From a virus (lineage: Duplodnaviria; Caudoviricetes), in the IMG/VR virus record IMGVR_UViG_3300046467_002171, positions 1-55,982 of that record: a stretch of 55,982 nt of DNA; one strand, 5' to 3'. Every line of letters begins with the position of its first letter. The first letter of the stretch is position 1. The position numbers and the translations under genes were made by a program. Below, in pieces: positions 564-33,095 of this stretch. The notes beneath the pieces are model-generated. The model saw only the letters and a program-made list of their open reading frames with translations, was not told where the DNA came from and ran no database searches.

Positions 564-1037
564 ATGGCTGATTCTGAGAACAGTGCTACGAATAGGAGTG
601 CTCATCGGAGGATGATACAGAGAGTCAAAGACACTCCCAAAAGAGACTTGGATGCGGAAGCAGACGCATACGCAAAAGAGCATCCGATTAAGAGTTTTTT
701 TAGACTCTCTAAAGATTACGACCCTGAAACAGGTTTCAGGACCGGTTCGCGCCAGGACCGGCTCGCAAAGCAAATAAAAGTTGCTGACCCTGATCCAAGG
801 ACGCAAAGGCGGAAGCTCCAAGAATTTAAGACGCGTCTGTTGGAACATCACGGGCAGAAAACAGCTGAAAAACGTACGACAGAGGAAGGTCAAAGAAGGA
901 ATAAAAGAGCACAAAGACTAGCAGCAAAACCAAAAGGTATGAAGGAAGGCGGAATGGTCAAAAAGACAAGGATGCGGAAGAAATCCATTGACGGTATTGC
1001 ACGTAGAGGAAAGACCCGAGCAACGCGTCCTTGGTAA
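564..1037 (+). CDS. Small basic protein with MKEGGMV motif
   Basis: AAGGAG RBS; K/R-rich; C-terminal DGIARRGKT. Confidence 0.7.
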   Translation: MADSENSATNRSAHRRMIQRVKDTPKRDLDAEADAYAKEHPIKSFFRLSKDYDPETGFRTGSRQDRLAKQIKVADPDPRTQRRKLQEFKTRLLEHHGQKTAEKRTTEEGQRRNKRAQRLAAKPKGMKEGGMVKKTRMRKKSIDGIARRGKTRATRPW

Positions 1038-1071
1038 GGCGGGTCACAATGAGCGCAAAGGGGCCTATAAA

Positions 1072-1756: not shown

Positions 1757-3226
1757 ATGAATACATTACCGGTCGAATCTGTTGAAATTTCGGAAAAACG
1801 CCTGAAGCTAGAGCTTAGGCTTGAGAAGTTGAGGCAGCATGAGGTTTGCCGACAGGATTTTTTAACCTTCGTACGGGCCATGTGGCCGCAGTTCATTGTC
1901 GGAGAGCATCACCGTACCATCGCAGATAAGCTGGAGCGCATTGCTAAGGGCGAATTAAAGCGGCTTATTATCAATATGCCGCCCCGGCACACCAAGTCTG
2001 AATTTGCCAGTTTCCTGTTTCCCGCGTGGATGATCGGTCGCGATCCAGCCATGAAAATCATTCAGGCCACGCACACCACGGAACTGGCTATCGGTTTTGG
2101 CCGCAAGGTTAAGAACCTGTTGGAGCGCGAGGAATATACGGAAGTCTTTCCTGATACAAAATTATCTTATGATTCGAAGGCTTCGGGCCGTTGGGACACC
2201 AATAAGGGCGGCATGTACTATGCCGTGGGCGTCGGGTCGAACCTCGCGGGCCGTGGCGGAGATTTAATCATTATTGACGACCCGCATTCTGAGCAGACGG
2301 CGATGTCCAACACTGGGTTTGAGGATGCGTGGGACTGGTATACCGGTGGGCCGCGCCAGCGCTTGCAGCCCGGCGGAGCCATTGTTCTGGTGCAGACGCG
2401 CTGGTCAGAAAAGGACCTGACTGCGCAGCTTATCCGCGCACAGAGCAAGGACCACGGTGCAGATCAGTGGGAAATTGTGGAGCTTCCGGCCATTTTGCCT
2501 TCGGGTAACGCTTGCTGGCCGGAATACTGGCCGTTGCAGGATCTAGAGCGGGTCCGTGCGTCGATTCCGGTATACAAGTGGAACGCGCAGTATCAACAGC
2601 AACCCACCAGCGACGAGACTTCCATTTTGAAGAGGGAGTGGTGGAAAATATGGACCAAGGACCATGTGCCGCAATTGCAGTATGTCATACAGAGTTACGA
2701 CACGGCATTCAGCAAGCGGGAGACGGCGGACTTTTCCGCTATTACCACATGGGGGGTATTTTTTCCAGAAGAGGGGGGTCCGCCCAATTTAATTTTGCTG
2801 GACAGCAAAAAGGGCCGTTGGGATTTCCCAGATTTAAAAGAAGTTGCCTTGGAGCAATATAATTTTTGGGAACCGGAGACGGTTATTATTGAAGCGAAGG
2901 CGAGTGGCCTTCCCTTGACGCAGGAACTAAGAAACGTAGGCATTCCCGTGGTCAACTTCACACCCAGTAAAGGGAATGATAAGCTGGCTCGGGCTCATGC
3001 CATTTCGCCGTTATTCGAAAGCGGCATGGTGTGGGCACCAGAAGAAAGCTGGGCGGAAGAACTCATGGAGGAGTGTGCCGCTTTTCCTAATGGGGAATAC
3101 GATGACTTGGTGGACAGTATGACGCAAGCACTGATGCGGTATCGTCAAGGCAATTTTATTCAGCTACCCACGGATGACTGGGAAGATGATCCGAGTACGG
3201 TAAAACCTATGGTCTATTACGGCTAA
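1757..3226 (+). CDS. terL: Terminase large subunit
   Basis: Walker A-like MPPRHTKS, Walker B IIIDDPH, coupling motif QTRW, nuclease motifs SYDTA and DDLVDS. Confidence 0.95.
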   Translation: MNTLPVESVEISEKRLKLELRLEKLRQHEVCRQDFLTFVRAMWPQFIVGEHHRTIADKLERIAKGELKRLIINMPPRHTKSEFASFLFPAWMIGRDPAMKIIQATHTTELAIGFGRKVKNLLEREEYTEVFPDTKLSYDSKASGRWDTNKGGMYYAVGVGSNLAGRGGDLIIIDDPHSEQTAMSNTGFEDAWDWYTGGPRQRLQPGGAIVLVQTRWSEKDLTAQLIRAQSKDHGADQWEIVELPAILPSGNACWPEYWPLQDLERVRASIPVYKWNAQYQQQPTSDETSILKREWWKIWTKDHVPQLQYVIQSYDTAFSKRETADFSAITTWGVFFPEEGGPPNLILLDSKKGRWDFPDLKEVALEQYNFWEPETVIIEAKASGLPLTQELRNVGIPVVNFTPSKGNDKLARAHAISPLFESGMVWAPEESWAEELMEECAAFPNGEYDDLVDSMTQALMRYRQGNFIQLPTDDWEDDPSTVKPMVYYG

Positions 3227-3230: not shown

Positions 3231-6200
3231 ATGATTGGCGGCATAGCCCAAGCGTTACGCGACGGTACTTATAAGCCTATTTTCTCTGCTGAGCAGCAAG
3301 CAAGCATGGATGCTCGCAATGCGCACAACGCGGCGGCTGCAAAGGCACTCGCAGAAGCGCCCGCACTTGCAGCACAGCGCAGACGAGACGAAATCGCAGC
3401 GAACCAAGCGTTTTTGGATTCTGGAGGGGCAGATATACCAGACAATTACTGGGGCGATACTGCGGCTTCGAGGAATTGGGTGAATCCTTACTACGATCCT
3501 GAAGATCCGCGAGTAACCAATCCAACCCAGTATACTCGCTTCGACGTATCGGAACGGGGCAGCGGCATCCGGGCTAGCGGTAACAGCCTTGCGACAGCCT
3601 TTGATCGCACCATCGCATCGCAATGGTTGCAGCCATTAGACAGTGGCCTCACCGATGTGCAAGAGCATCTCTATGGCGGCGGTGCGGGTGCTTTCACACC
3701 TCCTGCGTATGCAATAGGCAACCTAGACCCGCGTCAGCAAGCGATCATAAATCAAAATAAAGAACTCGCTCAATACAAAACAACCCTGCGCGGCTTTCAA
3801 AACGACAAGGATTATCAAACGGCCTTCCAGGGGGCGGGTATTAACTTAGCGGGGATCAAGAACGCAGAAGATTTAGCCGCTATTTCTCCAGATAGAAAAG
3901 CTGCTGTTTATGACATCTACCAGCGTATTAAACAAGAGAAAAACCAACGCGAGAAGCCTTTTGGCTTTGGCGATGCCCTTGGAATCGGGCTAGCCGTCGC
4001 ATCGGCTTTTGTCGGCAACCCCTATGCTGCCGCCGCTTTAGGAGCCGGGGGTGCTGCGGCTCGTGGGGGTAACCTCAAAGATATTGCCCTAGCCGGGGGT
4101 ATTGCTGGATTCGCCAATTTTGCGGGGGGCAAACTTGGCGAGGCTTGGGATGCATCCCGAGCAGGTCGAGCAGCCCAAGCAGGTCAAAGCGCAGCGACCG
4201 CATCCAATGTAGCGGCGTTCGGTGGAACCGCAGCCGATGTATTTGGTCAGATTTCACCGGATTTAGCCGTTCGAGGGTTAGGTGGCACGGGGATCACTGC
4301 GGGCAACTTAGGATCTACTATTTTCAACCCAGCAGCGTTGGGGGGTATTCAAGGAGCGACGGCCCTTGGGACAGGTGCCGCACTTGGTGGCACCGCAACC
4401 AATGTATTTGGCGCTCTTCCCGCTACCGGTTCCCAAGTGTTGTCAGGAATCCCCTCCGCAATCGGAAGCCGCCACGGTGTCTCGTCCAGCATAACGCAAG
4501 GGGGCCGCTTGGTGCCCTTTTTGGATAAGAGCGCAAGCGCCGCCTCGCGCCCTCTTACAGGGGCCGGGGCACTTGTCCCATCCTCAGCAGGGGTCGGTAG
4601 ACAACTAGTACATTCTGGGCTTTCGTCGGTAGTAAACTCGATACGAGCGCCATCTGAAGGCGGTGGCGACGACGGCGGTATTGGTGGACTTGTAAATCAG
4701 TTATCTAGCGTTCCGACCATAACTTACCCGGACTATGCCCCGATAAGATCAGGGGCTCCGATACAGGCTGGTTTTGAACGGACTTCAAATATTGGTGTGC
4801 CGTCGGAATACGGCTATGTACCGACCGGACTAACCCCAGAGACTGCGCTTCCTTATGGCTCTGGCCTTGATCCGTATGCCCCGACAACGGGGCCGAATTT
4901 TGACGTATCGCCGTATTTTCAGAGTCCAAAGTTATTTCGTAGGGGCGGTGGTGTAGTAAACGTGGACTCTGGTGCACGGCCCACGGATCAGGAAAGTTTT
5001 TACCAAACATACGAATCGGGGTCGCAGCAGTATTCAGACAATCTTGGCGAAGGCATGGGTATTACTTATGATCGTGTAGAAGGCACCGATATTCCGCCAC
5101 AAAGTCGTCTTCAGGTTTTTGAGACGCCGCCTATGGGCGTTGGGTCGTTAAACGGCACGGCGCGGAACATGTCCCGTTTTGCGTATGGCGGGGGCGTAGG
5201 TTCGTTGAACGAGACGGCACGGGCCATACCTTATGCAGACGGCGGCATTGTTCCTGCTGATATGGTATGGGTTTTGGACGAGGACGGCGTGGAAAGGCTT
5301 TATCCGAAAAGCCTAGTTAAAAGGGAGTATAGCGACGAACCGTTGCCTGTAGAGGGGGATTTTATGGCAAACCTACAGGGGATCCCAGAAACCGTGGAAC
5401 GTTATTCAAGACCGAACGCTAGAGAAGAGAGGCAATTTGACGATTGGCAGGATAACAGAAGCGGCCTACACCCAACGGCTAGTTTAACAAGCCTAAATAT
5501 AGGTACAGATAACTGGGGAGTGGGGGGCAGGTTTGGTATTGGTGCGGGTGCTAATACAATTGACGTTGGGGCAAATATAGATCGCACCGGAGTTAATCTT
5601 AGTGATTTGAAAGCGAGGCTTGGATTGGGTGGCGTGTCGTCCGACCTGAGTCTTTTAGGACCTTTATTAGACCCCGATCGTTTCGAGGGGGCGTTAAACG
5701 CTCCAGTGGGTCAGGGTAGGGTGGCGCTAACGGGGGGCTTACCTTTGAAAGATTCCGGTGAGCCTAACGTAGCTTTGACGTATAGGCAGGAGTTTGCTGT
5801 AGGCGGTCCCATTATAAAAGCGGCTTCTATGGTATGGCAGCCCTTTAAGGTGAAGATAAAAAACCAAGCCATTTTTGGGGACTTCATGGGTTATACCAAG
5901 ACGGGCAAAGTCAGGGTTTTGGACGAGGAATCGGGGGTGGAAAAACTTTATCCGAAGAGTCGGGTAAGACGGGCCTATAGCGACGAACCCTTACCGGACG
6001 AGCCTGTAAAAAAGGTCCTTGGCGGGGCCATCGTCGGCGGTCCTGCGGTTCTAAAAACCGCGGCTGAGTTGTTAAAAAGAGATCCCGCAGGATTCTTTAA
6101 CAAGTCACAGCTTGTCGTACAGGAGGCGAAGTTGCCTCAAGCAACGGGACAGCGGTGGCAACAGTTATTCCAAGATAAGGGGATCAACAAAGCCGAACTG

Positions 6201-8777
6201 GGCGGCCTTGGTCTTTTGACCTTTTTGGGTTCGTCGGGAGACGAGCCGATCACCAAGGAAACTGTCGCGGAGTTTATCGATCAGAACCGTCTTGAGGTGG
6301 GAGAAGACTACAGGAGCACAACCCCGTCCGCTGACGCGGAGGAAAAAATTGACTTGGTACCGACGGATTCCAACATGTTTCGTAATTTAAATCTTTCGTG
6401 GCCCGACGCCGAGGGAGAGGATACGAGTAGCGGTGGGTTTTCTATAGTTATTAGGCCTAAAGAGTATCGCTTCGGAGAATTGGGGCTAGTACGTCCTACG
6501 CAATATAGAGTTATCAATCTAGACCCCGAAAATGGAGTTGATTCACGCCAGTGGAGAGTTGCGACAGATGATTTTGACTCGCAGAACGCGGACTACTATA
6601 GTGAGCTTGAAGGGCAGCATACCGACTACGACGGCACCCTGAACGAACTTAAAGTCAGCCTTACGAGTAGATTAAGGGATCAGGGCGTAATACAGACCTC
6701 TAAAGCGCCACGGTGGGCGGGTTTTATTCTTAGCTCCCCTGCGGTGGATCGTGAAACAGAGCTTCCTGACTCACAGGCCGCCGCTGAGTTATTAAATTAC
6801 AGGGAAATTGCCCTTACGGATCAACAAACGGGCGGACTCCACAAAAATACGCGGGCGCTTATTAACAAGCTCTCTGAACAAGCTTCTATGGCCGCCTTTA
6901 AACCAATTACTGAGTCGCAAACACAACCCCGCCAACACAACTTTCCCGAAAATACACTCGTGCATATTCGGGTAACAGATCGGCCCATCAGTATTAATGG
7001 CGTAGACCACGAGAAGGTCCTTTATGCAGAGGAATTTCAGTCTGACTGGGCACAAGGAGCCATAGGTAGGGGAATACTTCGACCGGAAGATATTTCTCGA
7101 AAGGCAGAATTAATAAACAAATTAAGCGAGATCCGCGTTAACTATAGCACCCTTCCAGATTTCGACACCCCAGAAGGCAAAACCCTCCGAAGAATCGCCG
7201 GACGAGAATCAAGCGAAATAGAAAAGGAGATAGAGGCGCTAGACCGAAAACCGGCGTATTCCCCCTTTCTGGAAAGCGGCGATAAAAAAGGAAGTGTGGA
7301 CCAATCTCCGGTACTTAGTTTAGCTATTAGCCGGTTATTGAAGGAAGCCGTGGACAACGGGCAGGACTACGTGGTCTTTTCTAATTATAAGGATCAGGTA
7401 ACAAGATGGGGCGAGACAAAGCTGGAACCCCTTTACCAAGAAACCATGCCAAATCTGGCAAAGAAAATAGTTAAGAATCTAGGCGGTTATGTGAAGCCTA
7501 AGTTCAAGACGAAGGAAAAAGAAAACAAGTATTACGAACAGAATTCCGACAAAGTGGGTAAAGAAGAGGATGCTTTTTTTGCAGATACCGTGATTGAACC
7601 CCAGACGTTCGAAATATTTTTGGATCCACAAAAAGCTAAACTAGAGCCGCCTTATTCACACCTTAGTGCAAACCGCTTCGTGGTGCATATCACGGACGCG
7701 ATGGCGAAGAAAATACGGGAAGAGGGCCAGCCGGTATTGAGCAGGGCCGCAGGCGGTCCAATTATCAAAGGAGCCGCCAAGGTTTTAACCAAACCCAAAA
7801 AGGCCCCTTTACTCCCGGCTGAAACTCTGATGGCTACACGGCCCGTAGAGCCGTTGGCTACGACACGAACAGGCTACCGTGTGGTGAACGTAGATGATGC
7901 CGGTAATTTAGTTTCGCAAGCAGATGCTCGTGTAGTGTTGCCGCCAGAATTGGGCAGCCAACACAACGTGCCTATGTGGCTGACACTGGACGACCAATAT
8001 GCGGTAGAAAACTATTCGCATGGTTCATTTGAGCCGGGGGAACGGCGGCAGGTGTTGCTGACATATGATTTCAACGAAAAGGATATTCTGCAAGGCAATC
8101 TAACGGATGTAGAGACAGAGTTTAGTGTCGGTCGTGCCAAGCTGCGAGAGATGCGAGATTTGTACGGCGAACCAATATCCCCCATAGACGAGGCAAACCG
8201 GGATAGAACCGGCGCGTCAGCGGTCCCGGCTAGAACCGCTCGCGCATCATACGCCACTCCGCTATTTGACAATAGTGATCCACACGTAAGCGATACGCGG
8301 TTCAATGAGAATTTGCTGGTGTATCTAGACGAGCCTAACACACCTCAGATGCAGGAAAGGTTTGGCGAGGAGAAAGTCGAGCAGCGAAATGGATTCGAGG
8401 TGTTTCAAGGAGAGTTCGGGTCGTGGAGGTACGCTGTACGGGGGGACGATGAAAAGTTGGTGAGTGTTATTCAGGGCGTAGACTTGGACGATGGCAGTGT
8501 TGTATCCAACATGTACACGCGCCCGGATGCTCGTAACCAAGGATTCGCTAAACTCTTGTTCGAGAAGGTTGCTTCAGACAAGGATAATCTAGCTGTATCG
8601 CCTCATTTTTCGCAAAGCGGGGCCGGGTTTTTCGGTCAGCGGAAAAAAGACGGTAGTTCAGAAGGTTACGCCGCAGGCGGTGGCGTCAGTTCTCTTAATG
8701 GGATAGCGCGAAACATGACTCGTTACGCTTATGGCGGTGGGGTGGGGTCTATGAATGAAACCGCACGGTCAATGTAG
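3231..8777 (+). CDS. Large modular (polyvalent-type) virion-associated protein with GG-motif linkers; EExQSDW, ART-like and GNAT domains
   Basis: 1848-aa ORF between TerL and portal; seven x-x-x-GG motifs; GNAT motif TRPDARNQGFAKLL; YR...WLT...ETE. Confidence 0.75.
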   Translation: MIGGIAQALRDGTYKPIFSAEQQASMDARNAHNAAAAKALAEAPALAAQRRRDEIAANQAFLDSGGADIPDNYWGDTAASRNWVNPYYDPEDPRVTNPTQYTRFDVSERGSGIRASGNSLATAFDRTIASQWLQPLDSGLTDVQEHLYGGGAGAFTPPAYAIGNLDPRQQAIINQNKELAQYKTTLRGFQNDKDYQTAFQGAGINLAGIKNAEDLAAISPDRKAAVYDIYQRIKQEKNQREKPFGFGDALGIGLAVASAFVGNPYAAAALGAGGAAARGGNLKDIALAGGIAGFANFAGGKLGEAWDASRAGRAAQAGQSAATASNVAAFGGTAADVFGQISPDLAVRGLGGTGITAGNLGSTIFNPAALGGIQGATALGTGAALGGTATNVFGALPATGSQVLSGIPSAIGSRHGVSSSITQGGRLVPFLDKSASAASRPLTGAGALVPSSAGVGRQLVHSGLSSVVNSIRAPSEGGGDDGGIGGLVNQLSSVPTITYPDYAPIRSGAPIQAGFERTSNIGVPSEYGYVPTGLTPETALPYGSGLDPYAPTTGPNFDVSPYFQSPKLFRRGGGVVNVDSGARPTDQESFYQTYESGSQQYSDNLGEGMGITYDRVEGTDIPPQSRLQVFETPPMGVGSLNGTARNMSRFAYGGGVGSLNETARAIPYADGGIVPADMVWVLDEDGVERLYPKSLVKREYSDEPLPVEGDFMANLQGIPETVERYSRPNAREERQFDDWQDNRSGLHPTASLTSLNIGTDNWGVGGRFGIGAGANTIDVGANIDRTGVNLSDLKARLGLGGVSSDLSLLGPLLDPDRFEGALNAPVGQGRVALTGGLPLKDSGEPNVALTYRQEFAVGGPIIKAASMVWQPFKVKIKNQAIFGDFMGYTKTGKVRVLDEESGVEKLYPKSRVRRAYSDEPLPDEPVKKVLGGAIVGGPAVLKTAAELLKRDPAGFFNKSQLVVQEAKLPQATGQRWQQLFQDKGINKAELGGLGLLTFLGSSGDEPITKETVAEFIDQNRLEVGEDYRSTTPSADAEEKIDLVPTDSNMFRNLNLSWPDAEGEDTSSGGFSIVIRPKEYRFGELGLVRPTQYRVINLDPENGVDSRQWRVATDDFDSQNADYYSELEGQHTDYDGTLNELKVSLTSRLRDQGVIQTSKAPRWAGFILSSPAVDRETELPDSQAAAELLNYREIALTDQQTGGLHKNTRALINKLSEQASMAAFKPITESQTQPRQHNFPENTLVHIRVTDRPISINGVDHEKVLYAEEFQSDWAQGAIGRGILRPEDISRKAELINKLSEIRVNYSTLPDFDTPEGKTLRRIAGRESSEIEKEIEALDRKPAYSPFLESGDKKGSVDQSPVLSLAISRLLKEAVDNGQDYVVFSNYKDQVTRWGETKLEPLYQETMPNLAKKIVKNLGGYVKPKFKTKEKENKYYEQNSDKVGKEEDAFFADTVIEPQTFEIFLDPQKAKLEPPYSHLSANRFVVHITDAMAKKIREEGQPVLSRAAGGPIIKGAAKVLTKPKKAPLLPAETLMATRPVEPLATTRTGYRVVNVDDAGNLVSQADARVVLPPELGSQHNVPMWLTLDDQYAVENYSHGSFEPGERRQVLLTYDFNEKDILQGNLTDVETEFSVGRAKLREMRDLYGEPISPIDEANRDRTGASAVPARTARASYATPLFDNSDPHVSDTRFNENLLVYLDEPNTPQMQERFGEEKVEQRNGFEVFQGEFGSWRYAVRGDDEKLVSVIQGVDLDDGSVVSNMYTRPDARNQGFAKLLFEKVASDKDNLAVSPHFSQSGAGFFGQRKKDGSSEGYAAGGGVSSLNGIARNMTRYAYGGGVGSMNETARSM
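8191..8245. repeat. 55-bp pseudoknot-forming element, copy A (inside the large ORF)
   Basis: 49/55 identical to 47452-47506. Confidence 0.85.
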
Positions 8778-21040: not shown

Positions 21041-21475
21041 ATGGCTTTTACCGGAAATTTTATGTGTACGTCTTTCAAGCAAGAATTAATGGAAGCCAAG
21101 CACAATTTTTTAGCTAGCGGCGGCAATACCTTTAAAGTTGCCCTGTATACCAATAGTGCCTCTTTTACGGCAGCTACGACAGCTTACACGGCCACTAATG
21201 AGGTTTCTGGTACGGGTTACACTGCGGCAGGAAACACGCTTACCAACGTAAATCCTTCTACCAGTGGTACGACTGCACTTACTGATTTCGCGGATTCGAC
21301 GTGGACTTCCTCCACCATTACGGCCAGAGGTTCGTTGATTTATAACGACAGTGCCAGCGGAGATCCGTCGGTCATTGTTTTAGACTTTGGTTCTGATAAA
21401 GCATCCAGTTCGGGAGATTTTAAGATTGTATTTCCCGCTGCGGACGCCAGTAACGCGATCATAAGGATCGCTTAA
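21041..21475 (+). CDS. Tail structural protein
   Basis: AGGAG RBS before ATG 21041; FKVALYT, NEVSGTGYTAAG. Confidence 0.7.
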   Translation: MAFTGNFMCTSFKQELMEAKHNFLASGGNTFKVALYTNSASFTAATTAYTATNEVSGTGYTAAGNTLTNVNPSTSGTTALTDFADSTWTSSTITARGSLIYNDSASGDPSVIVLDFGSDKASSSGDFKIVFPAADASNAIIRIA

Positions 21476-23830: not shown

Positions 23831-23832
23831 TT

Positions 23833-23994: not shown

Positions 23995-24040
23995 TGCTTG
24001 CGGATAACAGCATGTCGGGGCCGTGGGAATCCTGGATAGA

Positions 24041-25936
24041 ATGCCTTTAACCAAGCTACAATTTCGCCCCGGCATTAATCGAGAAATTACTTCCTACAGT
24101 AATGAAGGGGGCTGGTATGACTGCGATATGGTTCGTTTCAGATACGGTGTACCTGAAAAGATAGGGGGCTGGCAGCAGGATTCTTCCGCCACTTTTTTAG
24201 GGACCTGCCGTGCGCTTCATACGTATGTTTCCTTGGCGGGTAGTGTTTATACCGGCGTAGGCACCAATCTAAAATATTACATTTATTTGGGCGGCACGTT
24301 TAATGATGTTACGCCGTTGCGTAACACTACGTCTGCGGGGGATGTGACCTTTGCTCGTGTTGGCGTTGGGGATGCAACGCTTACGGTTACGGATTCAAGC
24401 CACGGTGCGGCAGCAAATGACTTTGTTACTTATTCCGGGGCAGCTAGTTTAGGTGGGAATATTATTGCGGCGGTTTTAAATCAGGAATATCAGATTGCCA
24501 CCATTACAGATGCCAACACTTACACCATTGAAGCGAAGGACACCGATGGAGATGCGGTATTAGCTGCCAGTGGTGACTCCGGTAACGGAGGTGGTTCAAC
24601 CGTAGGAAAATATCAAATAAATACAGGACTAGACTCTACCGTTCTTGGTACAGGCTGGGGTACAAGCACGTGGGGCCGTGGTACATGGGGATCGAGCAGT
24701 ACCCCCACAGTGTCTGACACTTTACGTTTATGGTCCCATGATAATTTTGGTGAAGACTTAATATTTAATGTTCGTAACGGAGGTATCTATTATTGGGACA
24801 CAAGCGCCAAGACACTGGGCGCTGATCGTGCTGTAACGCTTGCTTCGCTAGATACAGATTCCGCCATACCGACGGTTGCCAAACAGGTGTTGGTATCTGA
24901 CCGAGATCGTCACATCGTGGCTTTTGGTTGTGATGGTGAGACTACGATTGGCACGCAGGATCCTCTTCTAATTCGTTTTAGCGATGCAGAAAGTACGACG
25001 ACGTGGAATGCGTTAGCGACCAATTCTGCCGGGGAGTTACGAGTAGGGTCTGGGTCTGAAATCATCTGTGCCGTGGAAACCCGACAACAAATTATAGTGT
25101 TTACGGATTCTTCGTTACACGCTATGCAGTTTTTGGGACCGCCCTTCACTTTTGGCATTTCCCAGTTGTCGGAAAACATTACCATTATGGGACCGATGGC
25201 GACAAAGGCGGTGGACGACACGATTTTTTGGATGGGCCAAGAGGACTTTTATGTTTTTGATGGTCGCGTTCAGAAGCTCCCCTGCGCTGTACGGTCTTAC
25301 ATATTTGACGATTTTAATGTGGCCCAAAACCAAAAGGTTTTTGCAGCCCTCAACTCCACTTTTGACGAAGTCTGGTGGTTTTATCCTTCAGGGGATTCCA
25401 CAGAAATAGACCGATATGTGATTTACAATTATCAGGAGCAGGCTTGGTCCTATGGTTCCTTGGCCCGTACGGCATGGTTAGATCGCGGCATTAACGACTA
25501 TCCTTTGGCAACCGGCACGGATTACTATATGTATGATCACGAATATGGCTTAGATGATGGTAGTACAAACCCGCCTTCCGCTATTAGCTCCCATGTCGAA
25601 TCCAGTCAGATTGACATTGGAGACGGTGAACGGTTTGTGTTTATTCGCCGCCTAATTCCCGACGTAACGTTTGGCGGTTCGACGGCAACGTCTCCCACTG
25701 CTACATTTACTTTGAAAACACGGAATTTTCCGGGGGGAGCTTACCTAAGCTCTGACGATAGTTCGGTCACACAATCGGAAGCCGCCACTTCCACGGTAGT
25801 AGAACAATTCACCACTCAGGCGTTTGTGCGTCTGCGGGGGCGCTCTTTTGCCCTGCGTGTCGCCAGTTCTGAGGCACAGGTTCAATGGCGTTTGGGATCT
25901 CCGCGTGTTGAAGTACGACAGGATGGCCGACAATGA
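24041..25936 (+). CDS. Tail nozzle/stabilisation protein (tubular protein B-like)
   Basis: MPLTKLQFRPGIN start; beta-propeller-like repeats, IRFSD; size and position. Confidence 0.65.
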   Translation: MPLTKLQFRPGINREITSYSNEGGWYDCDMVRFRYGVPEKIGGWQQDSSATFLGTCRALHTYVSLAGSVYTGVGTNLKYYIYLGGTFNDVTPLRNTTSAGDVTFARVGVGDATLTVTDSSHGAAANDFVTYSGAASLGGNIIAAVLNQEYQIATITDANTYTIEAKDTDGDAVLAASGDSGNGGGSTVGKYQINTGLDSTVLGTGWGTSTWGRGTWGSSSTPTVSDTLRLWSHDNFGEDLIFNVRNGGIYYWDTSAKTLGADRAVTLASLDTDSAIPTVAKQVLVSDRDRHIVAFGCDGETTIGTQDPLLIRFSDAESTTTWNALATNSAGELRVGSGSEIICAVETRQQIIVFTDSSLHAMQFLGPPFTFGISQLSENITIMGPMATKAVDDTIFWMGQEDFYVFDGRVQKLPCAVRSYIFDDFNVAQNQKVFAALNSTFDEVWWFYPSGDSTEIDRYVIYNYQEQAWSYGSLARTAWLDRGINDYPLATGTDYYMYDHEYGLDDGSTNPPSAISSHVESSQIDIGDGERFVFIRRLIPDVTFGGSTATSPTATFTLKTRNFPGGAYLSSDDSSVTQSEAATSTVVEQFTTQAFVRLRGRSFALRVASSEAQVQWRLGSPRVEVRQDGRQ

Positions 25937-26232
25937 GTTCCAGAAGCCTTGTCCAGCCGCAATTTCCGCTTCCTCCGAATGCCTATGACGCTGCCTATAT
26001 GACGGAAATCGTGCGAGCCTTTTCCGTGTTTTTACAGCAGGTCAACAATCCCGGCGACTCACGGGCCACGACCCTGACCCTCACGAATCTCCAGTCGGAC
26101 GACTATAATCTGGAAACAGGCGCTCTTTTTGAGCAGGAGGCCTATATCAAAATCACCCTTGGGAACGTCTCCAATCCTCGCGGAAGCGAAGGTACGGGAA
26201 CCGTGGGATCAGTGACGGTAACCACTTCCTAA
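25933..26232 (+). CDS. Hypothetical tail-module protein
   Basis: ATGA coupling with the upstream gene. Confidence 0.7.
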   Translation: MSSRSLVQPQFPLPPNAYDAAYMTEIVRAFSVFLQQVNNPGDSRATTLTLTNLQSDDYNLETGALFEQEAYIKITLGNVSNPRGSEGTGTVGSVTVTTS

Positions 26233-26450
26233 TGGACAGACCGATCCTTTCTCTATCGCGTTGGCGGTCTAAGGACAGTTTTGATATAGTGCTTTGTGCA
26301 TCATGCGGTAATAAGGTTGATACACCTGCGGAAGTTGCTTCCTACCCTTCAGGTCAGTGTCCAGAATGTAAGCACCCGTGGACAGGGGCCGAGAAACGCA
26401 GCACAGCAATCTCGGTCCACGCTCCACGTGCCAGCAGAGGAGTGACATAA
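26232..26450 (+). CDS. Small zinc-ribbon protein
   Basis: CASC...CPEC. Confidence 0.6.
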   Translation: MDRPILSLSRWRSKDSFDIVLCASCGNKVDTPAEVASYPSGQCPECKHPWTGAEKRSTAISVHAPRASRGVT

Positions 26451-28309
26451 TGGCGTATGAACTTCCCGCTCAGGGGATCACCGGCATAAAAAAGGTTGCC
26501 GATCACCTTGCGGACTTTGGACGCTTTGGCGACGGCCATCTTGTGCATGCCTCGGAAGGGGAAGCAGTCGTTCCTTCGGCTGTGTTAAATGAAAACCCAA
26601 ATTTAAAAACCGCCCTGTTTACCCAAATGCGAGAGAAGGGCCTTGATCCTAATCGCTATATTGTGGGTGACGAACTTAATTCTATTAATCCGGTTACCGG
26701 CCAACCAGAATTTGGCGCAGTGAGGGATTTTTTCAAAGGCATTAAAAACGTCGTAAAGGCCATTGCGCCGGTTGTACTTCCCGTTGCGTTAAGTATGACG
26801 AAACTAGGCCCCATTTTTGGCTCTGCGGCGGGAACGGGCATTGCTTCGCTTATCGGGGGCGCTAGTCTTGGCAGGAGCTTAAAAAATTCTGTTATTGCTG
26901 GAGGCATTGGTGGACTCTATGCCGGTCTTCAAGGTGCGCGAGCTGGCGGAGGTTGGGAAGGCTTCAAATCGGGGGTAGGCAAAGCCCTTGGGCAACCCTT
27001 TGCAGCCCGCGTCCCACGCACCCCGGCTCCTATAGAAGAGCGGACTTTCGGAGAGTCCGAGCTAAGCCCCATAGATGTAAATGAGTATCTTACCCCAGGG
27101 GAATTACGAGTAGCGTCCGGGACAAACCCCATAACCGCAGCGGAGGCCTCATTACCTTTGGGCCAATTACAACCGCTAGGGAACTTTCCGAGTGACGGAT
27201 CGGACTTTCAACTTCAAGCACGGAGCCCGTTATTTGGACAGACTACGCCTCAGAGGGGTGTTTTTAGCACGGACCCGCCCGCGCCTCTCCTCAGTAGTCG
27301 TTACAGCGGGGCTAATATCCCCAGTACTCGTTACACCGGGGGTATCAGCGCTCGTGGCCCGGAAATGGGTCAACGGCTGCCCTTTGAGCCTAGAGTGCCA
27401 AGATCGGACTATTTGACCCCCGGTAGGACAATTATTTCGGGAGGCACATCGGGTTCCCCATCCTATACAGATCCCAATACGGGCGTAACGACATACGGCA
27501 TAGCCTCTGATCCTATACGTGCTGAAGTAGCACTTGGAACCCCCTATTCGGGGGAAGCCTTTACTAACCGTAATGCACTTGGCCTTAGAGGAATGGAATT
27601 AAAGCCCCCTTCTTTTCGATCACAGGCAGCCCCTATCGTAGATCGCTCTAAAACCCTTCCCCCACAGGGCCCACAGGCAGTTGGTGGTACCTCACAGGGC
27701 GTACAGGGAGACAGTGGCCGTGGCCGCTTTGCCAAGGCGCGGGACTACTTGGTCCGGGGCGGAAAAAACCCGAAGCAAGTGGAAGAGATTAAACAGGCCG
27801 CATTCGACAAAGCACTTTTGCGGACGGGTGACGTGAATATAGCGGACGAGGCTTACAATGCCGCCGGTCCCAATATGCTGGAAAAATGGGGGCCTTCAAC
27901 GGCTTTGGGTCTAGGTGCTGCGGGGCTCTTCGGTGCGTTTAAACCGGGGGAGGAGCCAGAGCCTGTAGATTTTTACGCTCAAATGGGGGGGACTTCAACG
28001 GACCGGTTAAGAGATAATCCCGGTCTATTTAGGGTAGGTGTCCCGACGAGAGCTTATACCCCCGCCACCCTCGAAGATATTAGATATAGCGCCGTGGGCG
28101 GCCCCATAAATCAAGATAATTTTCCTCGGCGTATTGGAGCTATTAACGGAGCGGGTACAGGCACGTCCGATGATGTACGCGCTATGCTGTCCGACGGGGA
28201 ATATGTGATGACGGCTAAAGCGGTACGTGGGGCCGGAAACGGAAACCGGAAACAAGGGATGCACAACATGTATAACATGATGCGCCAATTTGAAGGTCAA
28301 GCAGTCTAA
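26450..28309 (+). CDS. Internal virion/ejection protein
   Basis: GAGGAG RBS before ATG 26450; GRFGDGHLVH...NPVTGQPE domain; hydrophobic G/A segment; C-terminal AVGG...GTSDDVRAMLSDGEYV. Confidence 0.7.
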   Translation: MAYELPAQGITGIKKVADHLADFGRFGDGHLVHASEGEAVVPSAVLNENPNLKTALFTQMREKGLDPNRYIVGDELNSINPVTGQPEFGAVRDFFKGIKNVVKAIAPVVLPVALSMTKLGPIFGSAAGTGIASLIGGASLGRSLKNSVIAGGIGGLYAGLQGARAGGGWEGFKSGVGKALGQPFAARVPRTPAPIEERTFGESELSPIDVNEYLTPGELRVASGTNPITAAEASLPLGQLQPLGNFPSDGSDFQLQARSPLFGQTTPQRGVFSTDPPAPLLSSRYSGANIPSTRYTGGISARGPEMGQRLPFEPRVPRSDYLTPGRTIISGGTSGSPSYTDPNTGVTTYGIASDPIRAEVALGTPYSGEAFTNRNALGLRGMELKPPSFRSQAAPIVDRSKTLPPQGPQAVGGTSQGVQGDSGRGRFAKARDYLVRGGKNPKQVEEIKQAAFDKALLRTGDVNIADEAYNAAGPNMLEKWGPSTALGLGAAGLFGAFKPGEEPEPVDFYAQMGGTSTDRLRDNPGLFRVGVPTRAYTPATLEDIRYSAVGGPINQDNFPRRIGAINGAGTGTSDDVRAMLSDGEYVMTAKAVRGAGNGNRKQGMHNMYNMMRQFEGQAV

Positions 28310-29352
28310 TGCCTGAATCTACCGTCTCTACACAATTTATCCGAGAAGACCCGGCTATTGAAGCCTATCGTCTGGGTCTTTTAGCGGACGTACAAGGCTT
28401 TATAAAACAACAGATAGAAGAAGGCGTACTGCCCCCGGATTATCAGGTTGCGGGTTTATCCGGTTTAGAACAAGCCGGTGCGCGCGTCGCAGAAGAAGGT
28501 ATTGGGGGTTACGAGCAATATATTTCAGGCGGCCTTCGTGGCATACAGGCCGGGCAAGCCGCCGTTTCGGGTGCGGCGATGCCCATGATGGGCACTGGTT
28601 TTGACGCCTATAAACAAGGCTTGGCCGGAATTCCGACAACCGCAGAGCAATTTGATCCGACTATGGCTCAGGCCTATATGGATCCCTATGAAGATCAGGT
28701 TGTACAGCAAGCCTTAAAAGACTTACAACGACAAAGCGATATTGCTCAAGTAGGCGATCAGGCGCGAGCCGTGGGCGCAGGCGCTTTTGGTGGTTCCCGA
28801 GAAGGTATTGTAAGAGCCGAAAATATAAGAAACCTTCAGGAAGCACAGATTCGTTCTTCAGGACAATTGAGATCTGCGGGTTATCAACAGTCTCTTCAAA
28901 ACGCCCAACAAGCGTTTGAAGCCGCGCAACAACGACAATTGGCGGGCGTGGGTCTTACCGGTCAGTTAGCCCAAGGTATTGGTCAATTAGGCTTACAAAC
29001 CGGTCAGTTGGGGGGCCAGTTGGGTACGTTAGGGCTACAAGAGGCCGGTTTGGGAGAATTAAGCACTAATCTGGGGATAGCTCAATCCAGAAATCTTATG
29101 GACATAGGTGGTGTACAACGGGCACAGCAACAAGCGGAATTGGACGCACTGCGTCAAACCAATCTTGCTCGACAAGCGCAGCCCTATCAGCAGTATGCTT
29201 TCCTGTCGGACATTTATAAAGGAACGCCGTCAGGACAGCAGGTCATTACGTCTTCTGCGGCGGCACAACCCTCATCCTTTCAAACGGCGGCGGGTTTTGG
29301 TATTGCGGGGCTGGCTACGGCAGCAGGCGCTAAAAACGCGGGGTTATTCTAA
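28309..29352 (+). CDS. Putative DNA ejection/pilot protein
   Basis: Q/G/A-rich; AYMDPY..QVV, AGAFGGSREG; hydrophobic C-terminus. Confidence 0.6.
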   Translation: MPESTVSTQFIREDPAIEAYRLGLLADVQGFIKQQIEEGVLPPDYQVAGLSGLEQAGARVAEEGIGGYEQYISGGLRGIQAGQAAVSGAAMPMMGTGFDAYKQGLAGIPTTAEQFDPTMAQAYMDPYEDQVVQQALKDLQRQSDIAQVGDQARAVGAGAFGGSREGIVRAENIRNLQEAQIRSSGQLRSAGYQQSLQNAQQAFEAAQQRQLAGVGLTGQLAQGIGQLGLQTGQLGGQLGTLGLQEAGLGELSTNLGIAQSRNLMDIGGVQRAQQQAELDALRQTNLARQAQPYQQYAFLSDIYKGTPSGQQVITSSAAAQPSSFQTAAGFGIAGLATAAGAKNAGLF

Positions 29353-32300
29353 TGGCGGGTGTTTTATCTAGACCTTTATTTCGTCAGCACTACCAGGCAG
29401 GCGGTGGGGTTTCGGACCTCTTGGAACGCGGAAGAGGTATGGGTGGAGCCGCTCTAGAACGCGGAAGAGGTATGGGTGGAGCCGCTGTTGAATATCTAAT
29501 GAAGCAAGGCCTTTCTCTTGAAGAGGCGGTAGAACAACTAAAAAATAACCCCCGTTTAATAGAAGCCCTAGAACGCGGAGAAGGCATTGCAGGCGAAGCC
29601 CTAGAACGTGGAAGGGCCGCTATAGACGATCCACGTGTGAGAGCAACCTTTGAACGTGGGAAGGGTATGGCAGGCGAAGCCCTAGAACGTGGAAGAGGAC
29701 TTATGGAACGCCTACACGGAGTACCCCCCGGCGGCTTTGGTGCAGGTTCGGTTAATGTACCCCCCGGCGGCTTTGGTGCAGGCCCAGTTAATGTACCCCC
29801 CGGCGGTTTCGGGGGGACTAATTTACCTGTACCCGTACAGCGGTCTGGTTTGCCCGTACAGCGGTCTGGTTTGCCCGTACCCACAAGTAGTGATGTAGGG
29901 CTTCCTCGATCCTTTGATACGGATCATATAGATAGCTTCCGAAATAAAGCAGGACGTTTGGCAAAAGGTCTCGGACGTTTGGCCATGAACCCTTATGTAG
30001 CTGCGGCTTCAATAGGGATCCCTTTAGCTTACGACGCTTTAACAGATTCTCCAGGAGAATTGTTGGATCAACTAGACACACAAACACGCGCCTATGTTGA
30101 ATATTTAATGGAACAAGGCGTTTCCATTGAAGAAGCGCTGAAAATAGCTAGTCCCTCCGAAGAGGCTCCTTTAGAAAGACAAGCCGGTGGCCCCGTCATG
30201 TCACCACAGGCGAGGATGCCGCCACCACAGGGAATGCCGCCACAGGCGATGATGCCGCCCCCTCAAGCCACACCTGCGGGCATGGATGCGTTAATGAGGG
30301 AAGCCCCGCAAATGTTAAACCAAGCCGAAGGGGCCGTAGCTACACGAATGGAAGAGGTGGGCCGTGAGTACGTCAACAACACGTTATCTGCGGTAGACAT
30401 GGCTGAAGATCCCGAAGGGTTAATAAACGCTATTCGTGGAACAGACGTACCCCTTGAGCAACGGTATGACGAACTAGCCCAAATCGTGGGCGAACAGGAT
30501 GCAGAGGCCACGCCGCCTTCTGTTTTAGCCTTGGTACAGCCTGCGATTATGATGACGGAGCAGGGTGCCGTGGACAGTGGTATAGGCAACCTGATGCAGG
30601 AATTATCGAGTAGTGCTGAAATGCTGACGGGAGAGGGCGAAGCCACTCCGATGGGAGAGGGCGTCGGCAATTTGATGATGGCTGGTGCACAACCGGCAAT
30701 GGAAGCGCTCCCCCCTGAAGCCATGATGGGTCCCCCGCCCGGAGCGATGATGCCACCACAAGCGATGATGCCACCACCGCCCGGAGGAATGGCCTACGGC
30801 GGCCCCGTACAGCGTTTTGCTTATGGCGGTATGGTTAATAGTGCGCAAGGATTAGCCCGTCTAGGACGGGGGCCAGATACCGAGTTGGTTCATATGTCTA
30901 AACGAGAAATCGGTGCTCTAGACGAGATGGCTAGACAAAGGGGGTTTGCTGGACTACCTCTTAATCCACAAACAGGGCTTCCTGAAGCCGGTCTATTTGA
31001 TCAGGATCCGGGTATTCTTGGCTCTGCGATCGACTTCGCTCGTAACCCTGTGGGGGCTTCGGTCGATCAGGCGAAAAATTTGTATACGGGCATTAGTAAT
31101 ATACTGGGTGATCCCAGTTTTCGGAAGGCTACAGGTGATTTTGACTATACTTATGGCGCAGACCGTCTAAATCCGAACTGGCGCAGCGCTGCGGAAGCAT
31201 TGACCCCTGATTTTATATCTTTACCGAATCTGCCCGCTCTACAACATGCCGAAATGAGCTCGTTTAACCCGACCTCCCAGTTAGATGCAAGCAGCCTTGT
31301 CCAGTTAGGCGATAGCGGCCCCTTGTCTGGTCTAAGCAAAAGTGCGATAGAGCGCTTAGCTCAGAGAAATATAAGGGGCCCAGTAGATGACTCTGTCTTT
31401 AACGTCCCAACCATAGCTCCGGCAACAGTTACGGACACAGAGGCAACAGTACTTAACCGTCCGGGCAGAATGCTCTATGAACCGGGACGGCAAGACTTTA
31501 AGGTCGATTATGACGATCCCGAGCGTTTTAAACAAAACTTTGACGCGCGGCTTAAACTTTACGAAGACGTTTTAGGCTCTGACAAGGACTTTACTAAATC
31601 CCAGATGCTGTTTGACATTGCCGGTGCGGGCTTAAACTTTGCCGGTGGGCGCGGTGCGGGTGGTGAAAATGTTGCCACACGATCTCCTGCGGCGCAGTTA
31701 GCAGCCGCTTTTTCGCAAGTGCCTAAAACTATGGGGGAACGTCTGGCGCTGCAAAGACAGGAAGAACGGGGTGTGAAAACCGCCGCCCTCGCGGCCACCG
31801 AAAAAGAAGAAACCGCCCGCCGAGAGGTCGTCGCGGACGAGCGTAAACTTAAACAGAGCCTGCTGCTTGAGGTGGAAAAAGGGAATTTCAATGCAAACAA
31901 TCTTGTGGATCTAACTGAGGGAAAGATGACGCATGAAAGAACTTTAGCGACGGCAGACCGCTTCTTGAGGGGAGAACTTGCAAGAATATCGAGCAGCACC
32001 GATTTAGCATCCGTTGGCATGCGCGGCAAGATTCAAGCTGCTCTGGGCGAGGTAGATCATCAATACGACATTATAAAACTAGCAGCAACGCTAGACACTC
32101 AGATTAAGAACAAGATGCTAGACGGCAATGTAGCGATTAGCCTGTCTAATACACGACTGCAAACTGAGCAGGAACTAACCCGGTTTAGACAAACTAGCCA
32201 AGACATAAGGTCTGAAAGAGAACTACGCCTTAGAGAAAATCTTGGTGCGGCCGGTCTTAGACAAACCTACGACGCGCTAAACCTACAACGCGCTAGTAGA

Positions 32301-33095
32301 ATAGATGTATTCAATTTAGGCCTAGAAGGCGAGATAACCACGAGAGAGCGGGAACGGTTAGCTGCCAAAATACAGAGCAACCGGGATTACTCGCAAGCCT
32401 CTCAATTTGAAGAGTTGCAGGCTTTCAAAGAGAAGCTTTCGGACAGAGAGCAACGGATGTTTGAGCAAAAACTTGCGACGAACTTCTTGATGGCGACCAC
32501 GGGCCAACTTACCAGAGAGGATTTGCTGCGAGAGTCCGCGTACGATAGACAACTCCAAAGCGCAATGGGCATAGACAACTGGAACAAGTTCAGTTACCAA
32601 CTCGATGAAAACATACGACAATTTGACATAGCGAACGGGCTAGAGGCCGATTCAATATATGGCACAATGGCGCTTAAAAAGAGGGTCTTAGATCGGGAGG
32701 CCCTTGAATATCTTCAACGCAGCACACCGGGTGTTTTTGACGACATTCCGGGCGGCACTCAAGCAGAAAGAGATCGAAATATTTTTGCAATGAGGCCCCT
32801 ATGGAAGCGTTATGCGGAAGGAACGTTAGCTCCTGCTCAGGAGGATTATTTATCCGCTCTTATAACAGGCTATCTGGATCCCACGCTAAACTCGCAAGGC
32901 CTCGAAACGCGCAAGGCCCTCCCACAAATGGCGCTTGCGGCTCTCCGAGAACGAGGGGAGCGGGGGCTAACCATGCCCATACAAAGTTCTACGGACATGG
33001 ATTTTGAAGGGGTGGATCCGAACTTTTTTAATTCACGAGACGCCGCGTTGGGCGCGTATGATAATAGGCTTTTAAATTTGATTCCGGAGAGCTAA
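29352..33095 (+). CDS. Large internal virion protein with GG motifs and tandem repeats
   Basis: YQAGG, RQAGG, MAYGG, FAYGG; GRGPDTELVH...NPQTGLPE; helical C-terminal half. Confidence 0.7.
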   Translation: MAGVLSRPLFRQHYQAGGGVSDLLERGRGMGGAALERGRGMGGAAVEYLMKQGLSLEEAVEQLKNNPRLIEALERGEGIAGEALERGRAAIDDPRVRATFERGKGMAGEALERGRGLMERLHGVPPGGFGAGSVNVPPGGFGAGPVNVPPGGFGGTNLPVPVQRSGLPVQRSGLPVPTSSDVGLPRSFDTDHIDSFRNKAGRLAKGLGRLAMNPYVAAASIGIPLAYDALTDSPGELLDQLDTQTRAYVEYLMEQGVSIEEALKIASPSEEAPLERQAGGPVMSPQARMPPPQGMPPQAMMPPPQATPAGMDALMREAPQMLNQAEGAVATRMEEVGREYVNNTLSAVDMAEDPEGLINAIRGTDVPLEQRYDELAQIVGEQDAEATPPSVLALVQPAIMMTEQGAVDSGIGNLMQELSSSAEMLTGEGEATPMGEGVGNLMMAGAQPAMEALPPEAMMGPPPGAMMPPQAMMPPPPGGMAYGGPVQRFAYGGMVNSAQGLARLGRGPDTELVHMSKREIGALDEMARQRGFAGLPLNPQTGLPEAGLFDQDPGILGSAIDFARNPVGASVDQAKNLYTGISNILGDPSFRKATGDFDYTYGADRLNPNWRSAAEALTPDFISLPNLPALQHAEMSSFNPTSQLDASSLVQLGDSGPLSGLSKSAIERLAQRNIRGPVDDSVFNVPTIAPATVTDTEATVLNRPGRMLYEPGRQDFKVDYDDPERFKQNFDARLKLYEDVLGSDKDFTKSQMLFDIAGAGLNFAGGRGAGGENVATRSPAAQLAAAFSQVPKTMGERLALQRQEERGVKTAALAATEKEETARREVVADERKLKQSLLLEVEKGNFNANNLVDLTEGKMTHERTLATADRFLRGELARISSSTDLASVGMRGKIQAALGEVDHQYDIIKLAATLDTQIKNKMLDGNVAISLSNTRLQTEQELTRFRQTSQDIRSERELRLRENLGAAGLRQTYDALNLQRASRIDVFNLGLEGEITTRERERLAAKIQSNRDYSQASQFEELQAFKEKLSDREQRMFEQKLATNFLMATTGQLTREDLLRESAYDRQLQSAMGIDNWNKFSYQLDENIRQFDIANGLEADSIYGTMALKKRVLDREALEYLQRSTPGVFDDIPGGTQAERDRNIFAMRPLWKRYAEGTLAPAQEDYLSALITGYLDPTLNSQGLETRKALPQMALAALRERGERGLTMPIQSSTDMDFEGVDPNFFNSRDAALGAYDNRLLNLIPES
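29424..29880 (+). repeat. Cluster of in-frame tandem repeats (33, 36 and 21 bp units)
   Basis: ERGRGMGGAA x2 (29424, 29457); VPPGGFG x3 (29721, 29757, 29793); perfect 21-mer x2 (29832, 29853). Confidence 0.85.

Follow-up and report, generated by a model that had tools for sequence, protein, structure and literature searches.

A recurrent glycine-glycine motif was analyzed in the late proteins of a tailed phage represented by the IMG/VR virus record IMGVR_UViG_3300046467_002171 (55,982 bases; CheckV completeness 94%), which was analyzed whole and is called the window here. The motif strings are best explained as copies of one short element, [FYML]-[ARQ]-x-G-G-x-[VIM], often continued by x-S-L-x-x-x-A-R or by Lys/Arg. 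Sequence comparison identifies its heptad [FY]A.GG.[VI] as the end-strap of a widespread module of ~55-70 residues, which most plausibly is located close to the distal ends of siphovirus tape-measure proteins (TMPs) and of podophage ejection-type proteins. The occurrence, enrichment, conservation and junction position of the element are established, as is its membership of this shared tape-measure-type module. One short searchable element ties together TMP C-termini, podophage ejection and polyvalent effector proteins, and small basic proteins resembling T7 gp7.3, in thousands of phages.

Occurrence and enrichment of the element

The original prediction had listed 14 heptapeptides of the loose form x-x-x-GG-x-V/I as a general tag of late virion proteins. 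All 14 are present, 13 of them at the exact nucleotide given; LRGGGAV starts at 18869 instead of ~18868, inside a 62-aa open reading frame (ORF) at 18725-18913. The loose form lacks specificity, being present in 17 of 51 translated ORFs, among them TerL (LQPGGAI), the portal (LPPGGPV and DAPGGAI), the DNA polymerase (SDSGGTV) and, in the head region, the ORF adjoining the capsid gene (AAAGGTV). Calling it a general tag was therefore an overstatement, as the loose pattern is common by chance, and its reported absence from capsid and replication proteins holds for the strict form [FYM]A.GG.[VI] only, the loose form being found in the DNA polymerase and beside the capsid gene.

Composition was controlled by shuffling each protein 2000 times, using 28 late and 20 early plus-strand ORFs (three minus-strand ORFs were excluded). 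In late proteins, GG.[VI] was observed 31 times against 12.2 expected, a count reached by 0 of 2000 shuffles; in early proteins it was observed 3 times against 2.1 expected (671 of 2000 shuffles). The strict form occurred 7 times in late proteins against 0.10 expected (0 of 2000 shuffles) and was absent from early ones. Five strict copies lie in ORF 3231-8777 and two in ORF 29352-33095; in a six-frame control, all seven fell in the frame in which those two genes are read, and the other five frames contained none. The strict pattern was derived from the same data and several copies are internal duplications, and conservation in relatives therefore provides the stronger, independent support. The single copy in ORF 564-1037, the weakest of the five motif proteins, is within chance on the shuffling test, and no relatives of this ORF were found in the viral contigs searched, which leaves its copy unsupported.

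A module shared with siphovirus tape-measure proteins

Residues 569-630 of ORF 26378-28309, within its last 75 residues, match five PHROGs, four of which are tape-measure families. The module also matches 303 phage records, mostly annotated TMPs of Mycobacterium, Gordonia, Arthrobacter and Vibrio phages. An exhaustive search with the C-terminal 89 aa of the ORF recovered 4238 clusters at E ≤ 1e-3, of which 1055 reached E ≤ 1e-10. Spacing was counted in the best 150 of the 4238 clusters (136 proteins, 148 cores): GG.[VILM] was found within 40 residues upstream of 120 of the 148 cores and A.GG.[VILM] upstream of 107, at preferred distances of 15, 17, 14 or 5 residues, and 131 of the 148 cores lay within 60 residues of the C-terminus.

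The siphovirus TMP C-termini (lambda gpH 733-784, T5 pb2 from 1128) have in common with this phage the module A.GG.[IV]...G.GTGTSD..A.LS.GE.V...helix...[FY]A.GG.V. The lambda stretch reads FATGGFTGTGG..GIVHRGEFVFT..LYRLMRGYATGGYV and lies beyond the Pfam domains of gpH, which end at 701; the earlier claim that lambda gpH carries the motif is thus correct, with FATGGFT and YATGGYV. Four giant TMPs contain four or five complete modules each, of the form [FY]A.GG.[IV].G.GTGTSDSIPAMLSNGEFV.NA.A...N..LL..IN.G..P.FA.GG.V, and nearly all of their A.GG copies are module ends. A phage lysozyme domain is placed between two modules in one of these proteins, and an SLT domain follows a module in another. 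The identical GG bracket is present in TMPs of Vibrio and Arthrobacter phages. The window differs from the siphovirus TMPs in the spread of the element, which here also reaches a polyvalent effector protein and small basic proteins.

Among solved structures, only TMP entries match, and the module is not resolved in them: PDB chains 8zdo_S and 8rk3_A, that is, Douge gp16 (twice, at 968-1003 and 1416-1449) and JBD30 gp46 (1023-1056). A 'hook' reading of JBD30 residues 1022-1066 comes from prediction and a T5 analogy with no density, and is not used here. TMP C-termini are reported to be trimeric and docked in the tail tip. AlphaFold2 modeling of the 89-aa module (42 sequences, mean pLDDT 55.9) gave two C-terminal helices after the core. 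When three copies of the module were predicted together, the score was 0.46 against 0.01 for the best of three controls, with at least 46% contact agreement between runs and a partner pLDDT of at least 50. That mark was reached by 20 of 30 proteins whose solved structure pairs one chain with itself and by 1 of 23 solved as single chains, counts that are only rough because the trimer prediction, with its own alignment and three copies, differs from the calibration. The confident interface comprises residues 44-88 (the GE.V core and helix), outside the GG at 20-21. The predicted self-association of the module fits the trimeric TMP C-termini and suggests a flexible strap leading into an oligomerizing core.

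The module is absent from the Pfam models matching lambda gpH and from the Pfam scans made here. Polyvalent proteins, TMPs and gp7.3-like proteins are already known as separate kinds. No description was found in Pfam, PMC5512222 or the literature searched of a GG-flanked element linking these three kinds of protein, of the linker and tail of the polyvalent family, or of the tandem small protein, which is weak evidence. The core strings TSDSIPA, LSNGEFV, LSDGEFV and GTGTSD were likewise not found in the literature, a weak result since most subscription journals were outside the search.

Scans with Pfam, PHROGs and NCBIfam found no tail tube, chaperone pair or tape-measure gene in the genome. 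The N-terminal TMP Pfam domains (TMP_2, TMP_3, PhageMin_Tail), which were found in the lambda, Vibrio and Arthrobacter TMPs and in P0038, P0060, P0166 and P0175, matched no late ORF. No protein here therefore measures a tail, and the phage was rightly described as tape-measure-less, given its podophage layout, SU10-type adaptors and lack of tube or chaperone genes.

The element in a polyvalent multi-effector protein

The product of ORF 3231-8777 (1848 aa) carries a single hydrophobic segment together with a Gly/Ala-rich region (aa 243-330), and its core and tail are conserved whereas its cargo can be swapped. Its relatives comprise six metagenomic homologues and eleven IMG/VR loci; a tblastn search with the whole protein against 50,697 phage records gave no match at 1e-5. 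When all GG.[VIL] occurrences in the homologues were listed with their flanks, one conserved linker emerged between cargo domains, ..AAGGPIIKGA.K.LTKPKKAP.LP.ETL.AT.P.EP.., and most of the 32 invariant columns of alignment A2 lie within this junction linker. The GG tail is the C-terminus in 6/6 database homologues and in 9/9 stop-reaching IMG/VR ORFs (some proteins overlap between the sets), where it takes the form of two 19-residue units GGGV.S[LM]N..AR.M.R[FY]A. or a shortened version. After an identical AA.GG, the PIIK linker follows in one protein and the GVSSLN tail in another; linker is fused straight to tail in P0006/L008, and the two are joined at the GG in P0010. Nine homologues display seven segment orders, a count in which single-linkage clustering lumps some multi-domain segments.

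The homologues' cargo includes ART-PolyVal, DUF6884 and DUF7699. ART-PolyVal (PF18760) was above its cut-off in P0005, P0008 and P0009 (49.9-55.3 bits against 31.2), and TRAM in P0005 scored 24.3 bits against the Pfam whole-protein cut-off of 21, with no single stretch passing. In the copy of this phage, Pfam gave nothing above threshold (GNAT reached 16-17 bits against 23.6-27), and family scans found no MuF or metallopeptidase domain in the 1848-aa protein. From these comparisons, the family belongs with the multi-effector proteins called polyvalent by Iyer, Burroughs, Anand, de Souza and Aravind, who described polyvalent proteins of phages and conjugative elements in 2017 (PMC5512222). As in that class, a long late-gene protein is encoded beside the portal and its homologues string together unrelated effectors in variable order. 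It differs in having a conserved GG linker between its cargo domains and a GG tail after the last of them, and in its tape-measure-like hydrophobic and Gly-rich stretch; the words 'linker', 'glycine' and 'tape measure' are absent from the text of PMC5512222. The original prediction of a multi-effector ORF is borne out by the swapping of cargo domains at the motif. The position of the motif at domain boundaries holds for ORF 3231-8777 by homologue comparison, the structural models being too poor to use.

At the codon level, two linker copies in L006 share 29 of 31 codons at identical residues, and those in L009 share 21 of 28. In the 19-residue units of this phage, 4 of 9 and 6 of 7 identical residues are encoded by different codons while the peptide is kept. 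Across five loci the tail is nearly invariant, with 0-1 non-synonymous and 2-4 synonymous changes over 31 codons (a one-residue shift put two loci beyond comparison). The linkers therefore look homogenized or recently copied, whereas the tail units are conserved as peptides.

The slot between TerL and portal is a location common to this phage, HTVC027P, 023Pt_psg01 and DSL-LC04. HTVC027P and 023Pt_psg01 have two ORFs there, the first of which stops 9-11 residues past a GG copy (2/2 examined), and the DSL-LC04 slot protein is PcfJ-like with three motif copies at its N-terminus. Residues 1654-1687 of the 1848-aa protein (8190-8291; EANRDRTGASAVPARTARAS..) resemble residues 99-138 of the early ORF 47157-47687 (E 0.012). 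That ORF adjoins the DNA polymerase gene, and a cargo domain of the 1848-aa protein may copy an early gene.

Ejection-type proteins

The hydrophobic and Gly/Ala-rich stretch of the 1848-aa protein (3957-4220) aligns with positions 26810-27000 of ORF 26378-28309 (E 1.3e-4), and in both proteins a hydrophobic segment is followed by a Gly/Ala-rich stretch, as in membrane-inserting tape-measure or ejection proteins. The motif proteins had been described as otherwise unrelated, which does not apply to ORFs 3231-8777, 26378-28309 and 29352-33095, since they have longer tape-measure-like pieces in common.

ORF 26378-28309 is listed as 643 aa from a GTG that is probably the wrong start; its homologue P0031 begins MAYERSALGITG, which fits the ATG at 26450 and a product of 619 aa. 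This protein has a degenerate N-terminal copy (MAYELP...GDGHLVHASEGE) and one hydrophobic segment. An N-terminal variant, ..FA.GGIA.L.PIA..M...GR.GDT.LAH..P.E, was found in 19 of 74 full-length relatives, in a DSL-LC04 'tape measure' protein and in the 1247-aa protein; in the protein of this phage its GG is lost (MAYELP).

In the 1247-aa protein (ORF 29352-33095), residues 480-495 form a 9-residue tandem, MAYGGPVQR-FAYGGMV, followed by ...LARLGRGPDTELVHMSKRE. Homologues at 34-49% identity retain the copy at residues 14-20, after RPLFRQ, the copy after LE[RM]Q and the tandem, as MAYGGPVQR / FA[YQ]GG[MP]V.., beyond which the sequences diverge. The N-terminal 480 residues (29352-30800) are low-complexity repeats, with ALERGRGMGG units, VNVPPGGFGAG three times, and Met/Pro/Gln runs.

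Small basic GG-repeat proteins and T7 gp7.3

The 62-aa ORF 18725-18913, which may instead start at MGKK and be 49 aa long, occupies the space in front of the adaptor gene and is also called as a gene by other pipelines (17 clusters). In 59 of 78 related loci with room downstream, a small ORF starts within 40 bases of the end of the gene for the 193-aa acidic protein. The motif is carried by 57 of these 59 small ORFs, in up to eight overlapping matches, and Lys and Arg make up 34% of residues. The relatives are built of one to ~5 tandem 9-residue units, for example MRGGGMVKK or LRGGGAVKKTG.KKA. Copy number of the unit varies even between close relatives among loci L019-L098, where the small gene is always coupled to the one for the 193-aa protein.

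A comparable protein is gp7.3 of phage T7, which has the C-terminus ARAGGKKSLSVARSSGGGINI. Like the small ORF, T7 gp7.3 (as well as gp6.7) is small and basic; KK follows GG copies, and a GGG[IV] string stands at the C-terminus. The relatives of the small ORF differ in being 9-residue tandem arrays, which gp7.3 is not, and a channel loop is known for T7 only. In the T7 stretches 365-631 and 1036-1335, gp6.7 ends in SAFGGKK and gp7.3 in SSGGGINI, so that GG is followed by basic or hydrophobic residues. According to Zheng et al. 2024 (PMC11784390; PDB 9jyz), gp7.3 residues 84-98 are resolved as six loops inside the channel at the adaptor-nozzle junction, every loop being fixed to two nozzle subunits; K84/K85 sit on the DNA end, the basic N-terminus is around the DNA, and gp7.3 is the first protein ejected. 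Residues 84-98 are the stretch between the last two GG runs of gp7.3.

Possible roles of the element

By analogy with gp7.3, we tentatively favor, at somewhat less than even odds, a reading in which the element is a glycine-hinged docking strap for exit-channel proteins and also an in-frame recombination joint. The five motif proteins (564-1037, 3231-8777, 18725-18913, 26450-28309 and 29352-33095) would probably be stored in or near the portal-adaptor-nozzle channel and would probably exit before the DNA. The element would lie as an extended, glycine-hinged strap against the channel wall or a neighboring ejection protein, flanking Lys/Arg would contact the DNA end, tandem copies could bind the symmetric ring multivalently, and the strap would park the protein end for first expulsion. 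Since one peptide recurs between cargo domains, in part with identical DNA, the element may also act as a joint at which effector cassettes are gained, lost or swapped in frame. Docking would account for copies at termini and in tandem, for the small proteins and for the T7 structure, and the repeats would explain cassette swapping. The docked TMP C-termini and the predicted self-association of the module also speak for this reading.

Several points weigh against this reading. We infer the virion location, docking and ejection of the five proteins. The small ORF aligns weakly with gp7.3 residues 1-40 at 40% identity (E 4e-4) in one pairwise comparison of lysine-rich sequences. The tail of the 1848-aa protein resembles gp7.3 at the motif level only, its BLASTP match (E 0.43, not significant) falling in a different part of gp7.3. 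In the AlphaFold2 model of the module, the GG and core are low-confidence coil, uninformative as to burial or exposure, and a model of residues 1480-1848 of the 1848-aa protein (6 sequences, mean pLDDT 33.2) is too poor to place the motifs in linkers. Docking leaves a copy between every pair of cargo domains unexplained, which a cut would explain, and the T5 and lambda TMPs are cleaved within or close to the module. The S-D...G-E core is far more conserved than tail-channel proteins, a pattern more in line with an intrinsic activity or a universal target than with a co-evolving partner.

The original prediction took the element for a processing site. In this account, which we regard as possible but doubtful, long virion proteins are cut at the element by a host protease, an unrecognized phage protease or the module itself, releasing effectors and C-terminal pieces. 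That lambda gpH is processed, as had been claimed, agrees with a 2025 paper (PMC12617516) that describes the loss of a ~14-kDa piece from the glycine-rich C-terminal region and gives site and catalyst as unknown and residues ~690-817 as unresolved. This region holds FATGGFT and YATGGYV, and the cut lies near the module: computed fragments weigh 14.7 kDa from residue 709 and 12.5 kDa from residue 734 (FATGG at 733). In T5 pb2 the cut is located after R1127 by Linares et al., in ..NSFVPR|AEGGMMYPG.., one residue before an adjoining A-x-G-G copy (A-E-G-G-M-M). The site V1148±1 is that of Boulanger et al. 2008, as quoted in a later reply that calls R1127 a tryptic site. V1148 falls in GEHGTEV|V, the GE.V core of the module, and residues 1-1148 give a computed 124.0 kDa against 123.9 reported. 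Both T5 assignments fall inside one module, yet they contradict each other. The adenovirus protease has the consensus (M/L/I)-x-G-G|x, which M/L-R-G-G-G would suit, and adenovirus-type maturation likewise involves a hydrophobic residue, x and G-G in basic core proteins stored with DNA. Processing would also suit the motif copies at every cargo junction of the polyvalent family, the lysozyme and SLT domains beside or between modules in giant TMPs, the invariant S-D and G-E of the core, which could be catalytic, and the argument of Iyer et al. 2017 (PMC5512222) that polyvalent proteins require processing.

Against processing, no protease family was found by Pfam (E ≤ 0.01, 32 late ORFs), PHROGs (E ≤ 0.001, 52 ORFs) or NCBIfam (13 ORFs), in agreement with the earlier remark that no prohead protease was recognized; PHROG names with 'protease' under the capsid gene denote fused capsid-protease families. 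The form [FY]-A-x-G-G is in a different register from the adenovirus consensus, and no clan-CE protease was detected in the scanned ORFs. Cuts near the C-terminus, at N-terminal copies or in the 9-residue-array proteins would release nothing useful, and the junction and tail copies of the polyvalent protein are without the S-D...G-E core. T7 gp7.3 is resolved uncut around its GG copies in the structure of Zheng et al. Docking and cutting at some copies are nevertheless compatible and can coexist.

It is unlikely that the element is a passive linker or recombination scar, a flexible glycine turn spread by duplication and homologous recombination with neither partner nor cut. The near-identical codons of linker copies within L006 and L009, the exchange of cassettes at the element and the lack of a fold there in the AlphaFold models would be expected of such a scar. 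It would not account for the 19-residue units that keep their peptide despite synonymous differences, for retention at 34-49% identity and at fixed spacing across tape-measure clusters, or for a small protein family in which the element is the sole conserved feature; conserved hydrophobic positions 1 and 7 would be unneeded in a mere hinge.

A bolder proposal, which we consider a little less probable still, is that the S-D...G-E core and GG strap make up a self-contained cassette by which tailed phages process and anchor proteins. Cutting by the core, in cis or trans, at [FYR]|A-x-G-G or in GE.V would explain the lambda gpH-to-H* and T5 pb2 cuts. The module at the end of ORF 26450-28309 would then make the 1848-aa protein a polyprotein of injected effectors and would cut the small GG-repeat protein into basic DNA-binding peptides.

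The T4 capsid-targeting sequence and encapsulin cargo-loading peptides are loading tags, and the element might similarly bind capsid or scaffold protein in the procapsid interior and load cargo. The terminal position, the tandem copies and a gene between terminase and portal would agree with this, as would the G-S-L string of the tail, which is reminiscent of encapsulin loading peptides. The element and module are, however, typical of TMPs, which assemble into tails, not heads, and we judge capsid loading improbable. Least credible by far is accidental GG.V in glycine-rich proteins, which the shuffling, the five empty control frames and the conserved positions in relatives refute for strict copies of the two large proteins, and which stands for isolated loose copies, the pattern being present in 17 of 51 ORFs and the single copies in 564-1037, TerL, portal and 26378-28309 being within shuffling expectation.

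Other candidates were considered and dropped: LexA/S24-like Ser-Lys self-cleavage (no conserved Lys in the module cores), GlyGly-CTERM sorting (no membrane helix following GG), an RTX-like beta-roll of 9-residue units, and a LysM-like or peptidoglycan-binding role.

The module supplies residues 733-737 and 778-784 as candidates for the lambda gpH cut, and the T5 dispute may be eased by the finding that both claimed sites fall in one module. A docking or ejection signal, if true, would offer a way to load phage particles with foreign proteins to be delivered, and a cut site, if true, would define the release of multi-effector proteins. The element is also a possible marker for injected effectors in uncultured marine phages.

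Genome layout and neighboring repeats

The large terminase is 55-64% identical to terminases of the Pelagibacter phages HTVC027P and HTVC023P and of phages 023Pt_psg01 and DSL-LC04. The gene layout was derived from Pfam, PHROGs and NCBIfam scans and is given with the motif features in Table 1.

Table 1. Positions of the motif-bearing proteins, their motif features and the surrounding genes in the window
Feature	Position	Strand	Remarks
157-aa very basic protein	564-1037	+	C-terminal end KGMKEGGMVKKTRMRKKSIDGIARRG, similar to other copies
TerL	1757-3226		family scans
1848-aa polyvalent-type protein, candidate virion protein	3231-8777	+	slot between TerL and portal
FRRGGGVV copy in conserved N-terminal core	4935-4958	+	FHRGGGVVNVD in homologues
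Internal run of 19-residue unit GV.SLN..AR.M.R[FY]A.GG	5136-5252	+	ends in YADGGIV
Cassette between two motif copies	5793-6050	+	FAVGGPII, small beta-rich domain, KKVLGGAIVGGPAV
Junction linker	7743-7865	+	RAAGGPIIKGAAKVLTKPKKAPLLPAETLMATRPVEP; between large conserved domain and variable cargo
C-terminal tail	8667-8774	+	two 19-residue units, YAAGGGVSSLNGIARNMTRYAYGGGVGSMNETARSM
Portal	8808-11264		family scans
Holin, GH108 lysin, 2OG-Fe(II) oxygenase, GroES-like protein			next after portal; family scans
Coiled-coil scaffold-like protein			between GroES-like protein and major capsid protein; family scans
Major capsid protein	15917-16822		family scans
193-aa acidic protein	18151-18732	+	DUF6875/DUF1415-like by language-model look-alikes only
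Small basic protein	18725-18913	+	62 or possibly 49 aa; ends LRGGGAVKKTGIKK
Two SU10-type adaptors	18913-19800 and 20099-20746		family scans
Fibre-like proteins			after adaptors; family scans
Run of large proteins without family assignment	24023-38018		family scans
619-aa ejection-type protein	26450-28309	+	listed as 643 aa from GTG 26378
Tape-measure-type module	28088-28306	+	SAVGGPI, 15 residues, G.GTGTSD..A.LSDGEYV, helix, FEGQAV at C-terminus
1247-aa ejection-type protein	29352-33095	+	YQAGGGV aa 14-20, RQAGGPV aa 276-282
Replication genes	beyond 38018		family scans

Further repeats occur in neighboring genes. ORF 21475-22047 is made up of 22-residue tandem units (GVAGTGSVGSVTIEGDANVTVT), and the G.G.VGSVT string at the end of ORF 25933-26232 is also found in these units. 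The N-terminal TGWGRDTWGSGTWG of ORF 25933-26232 matches residues around position 210 of ORF 24023-25936 (E 8e-6). A glycine-rich fibre-like protein at 22058-23830 contains internal repeats of ~37 residues (VDDTGYDVK.FGATSGKYWLWDESADGVVQQGTLTVG).

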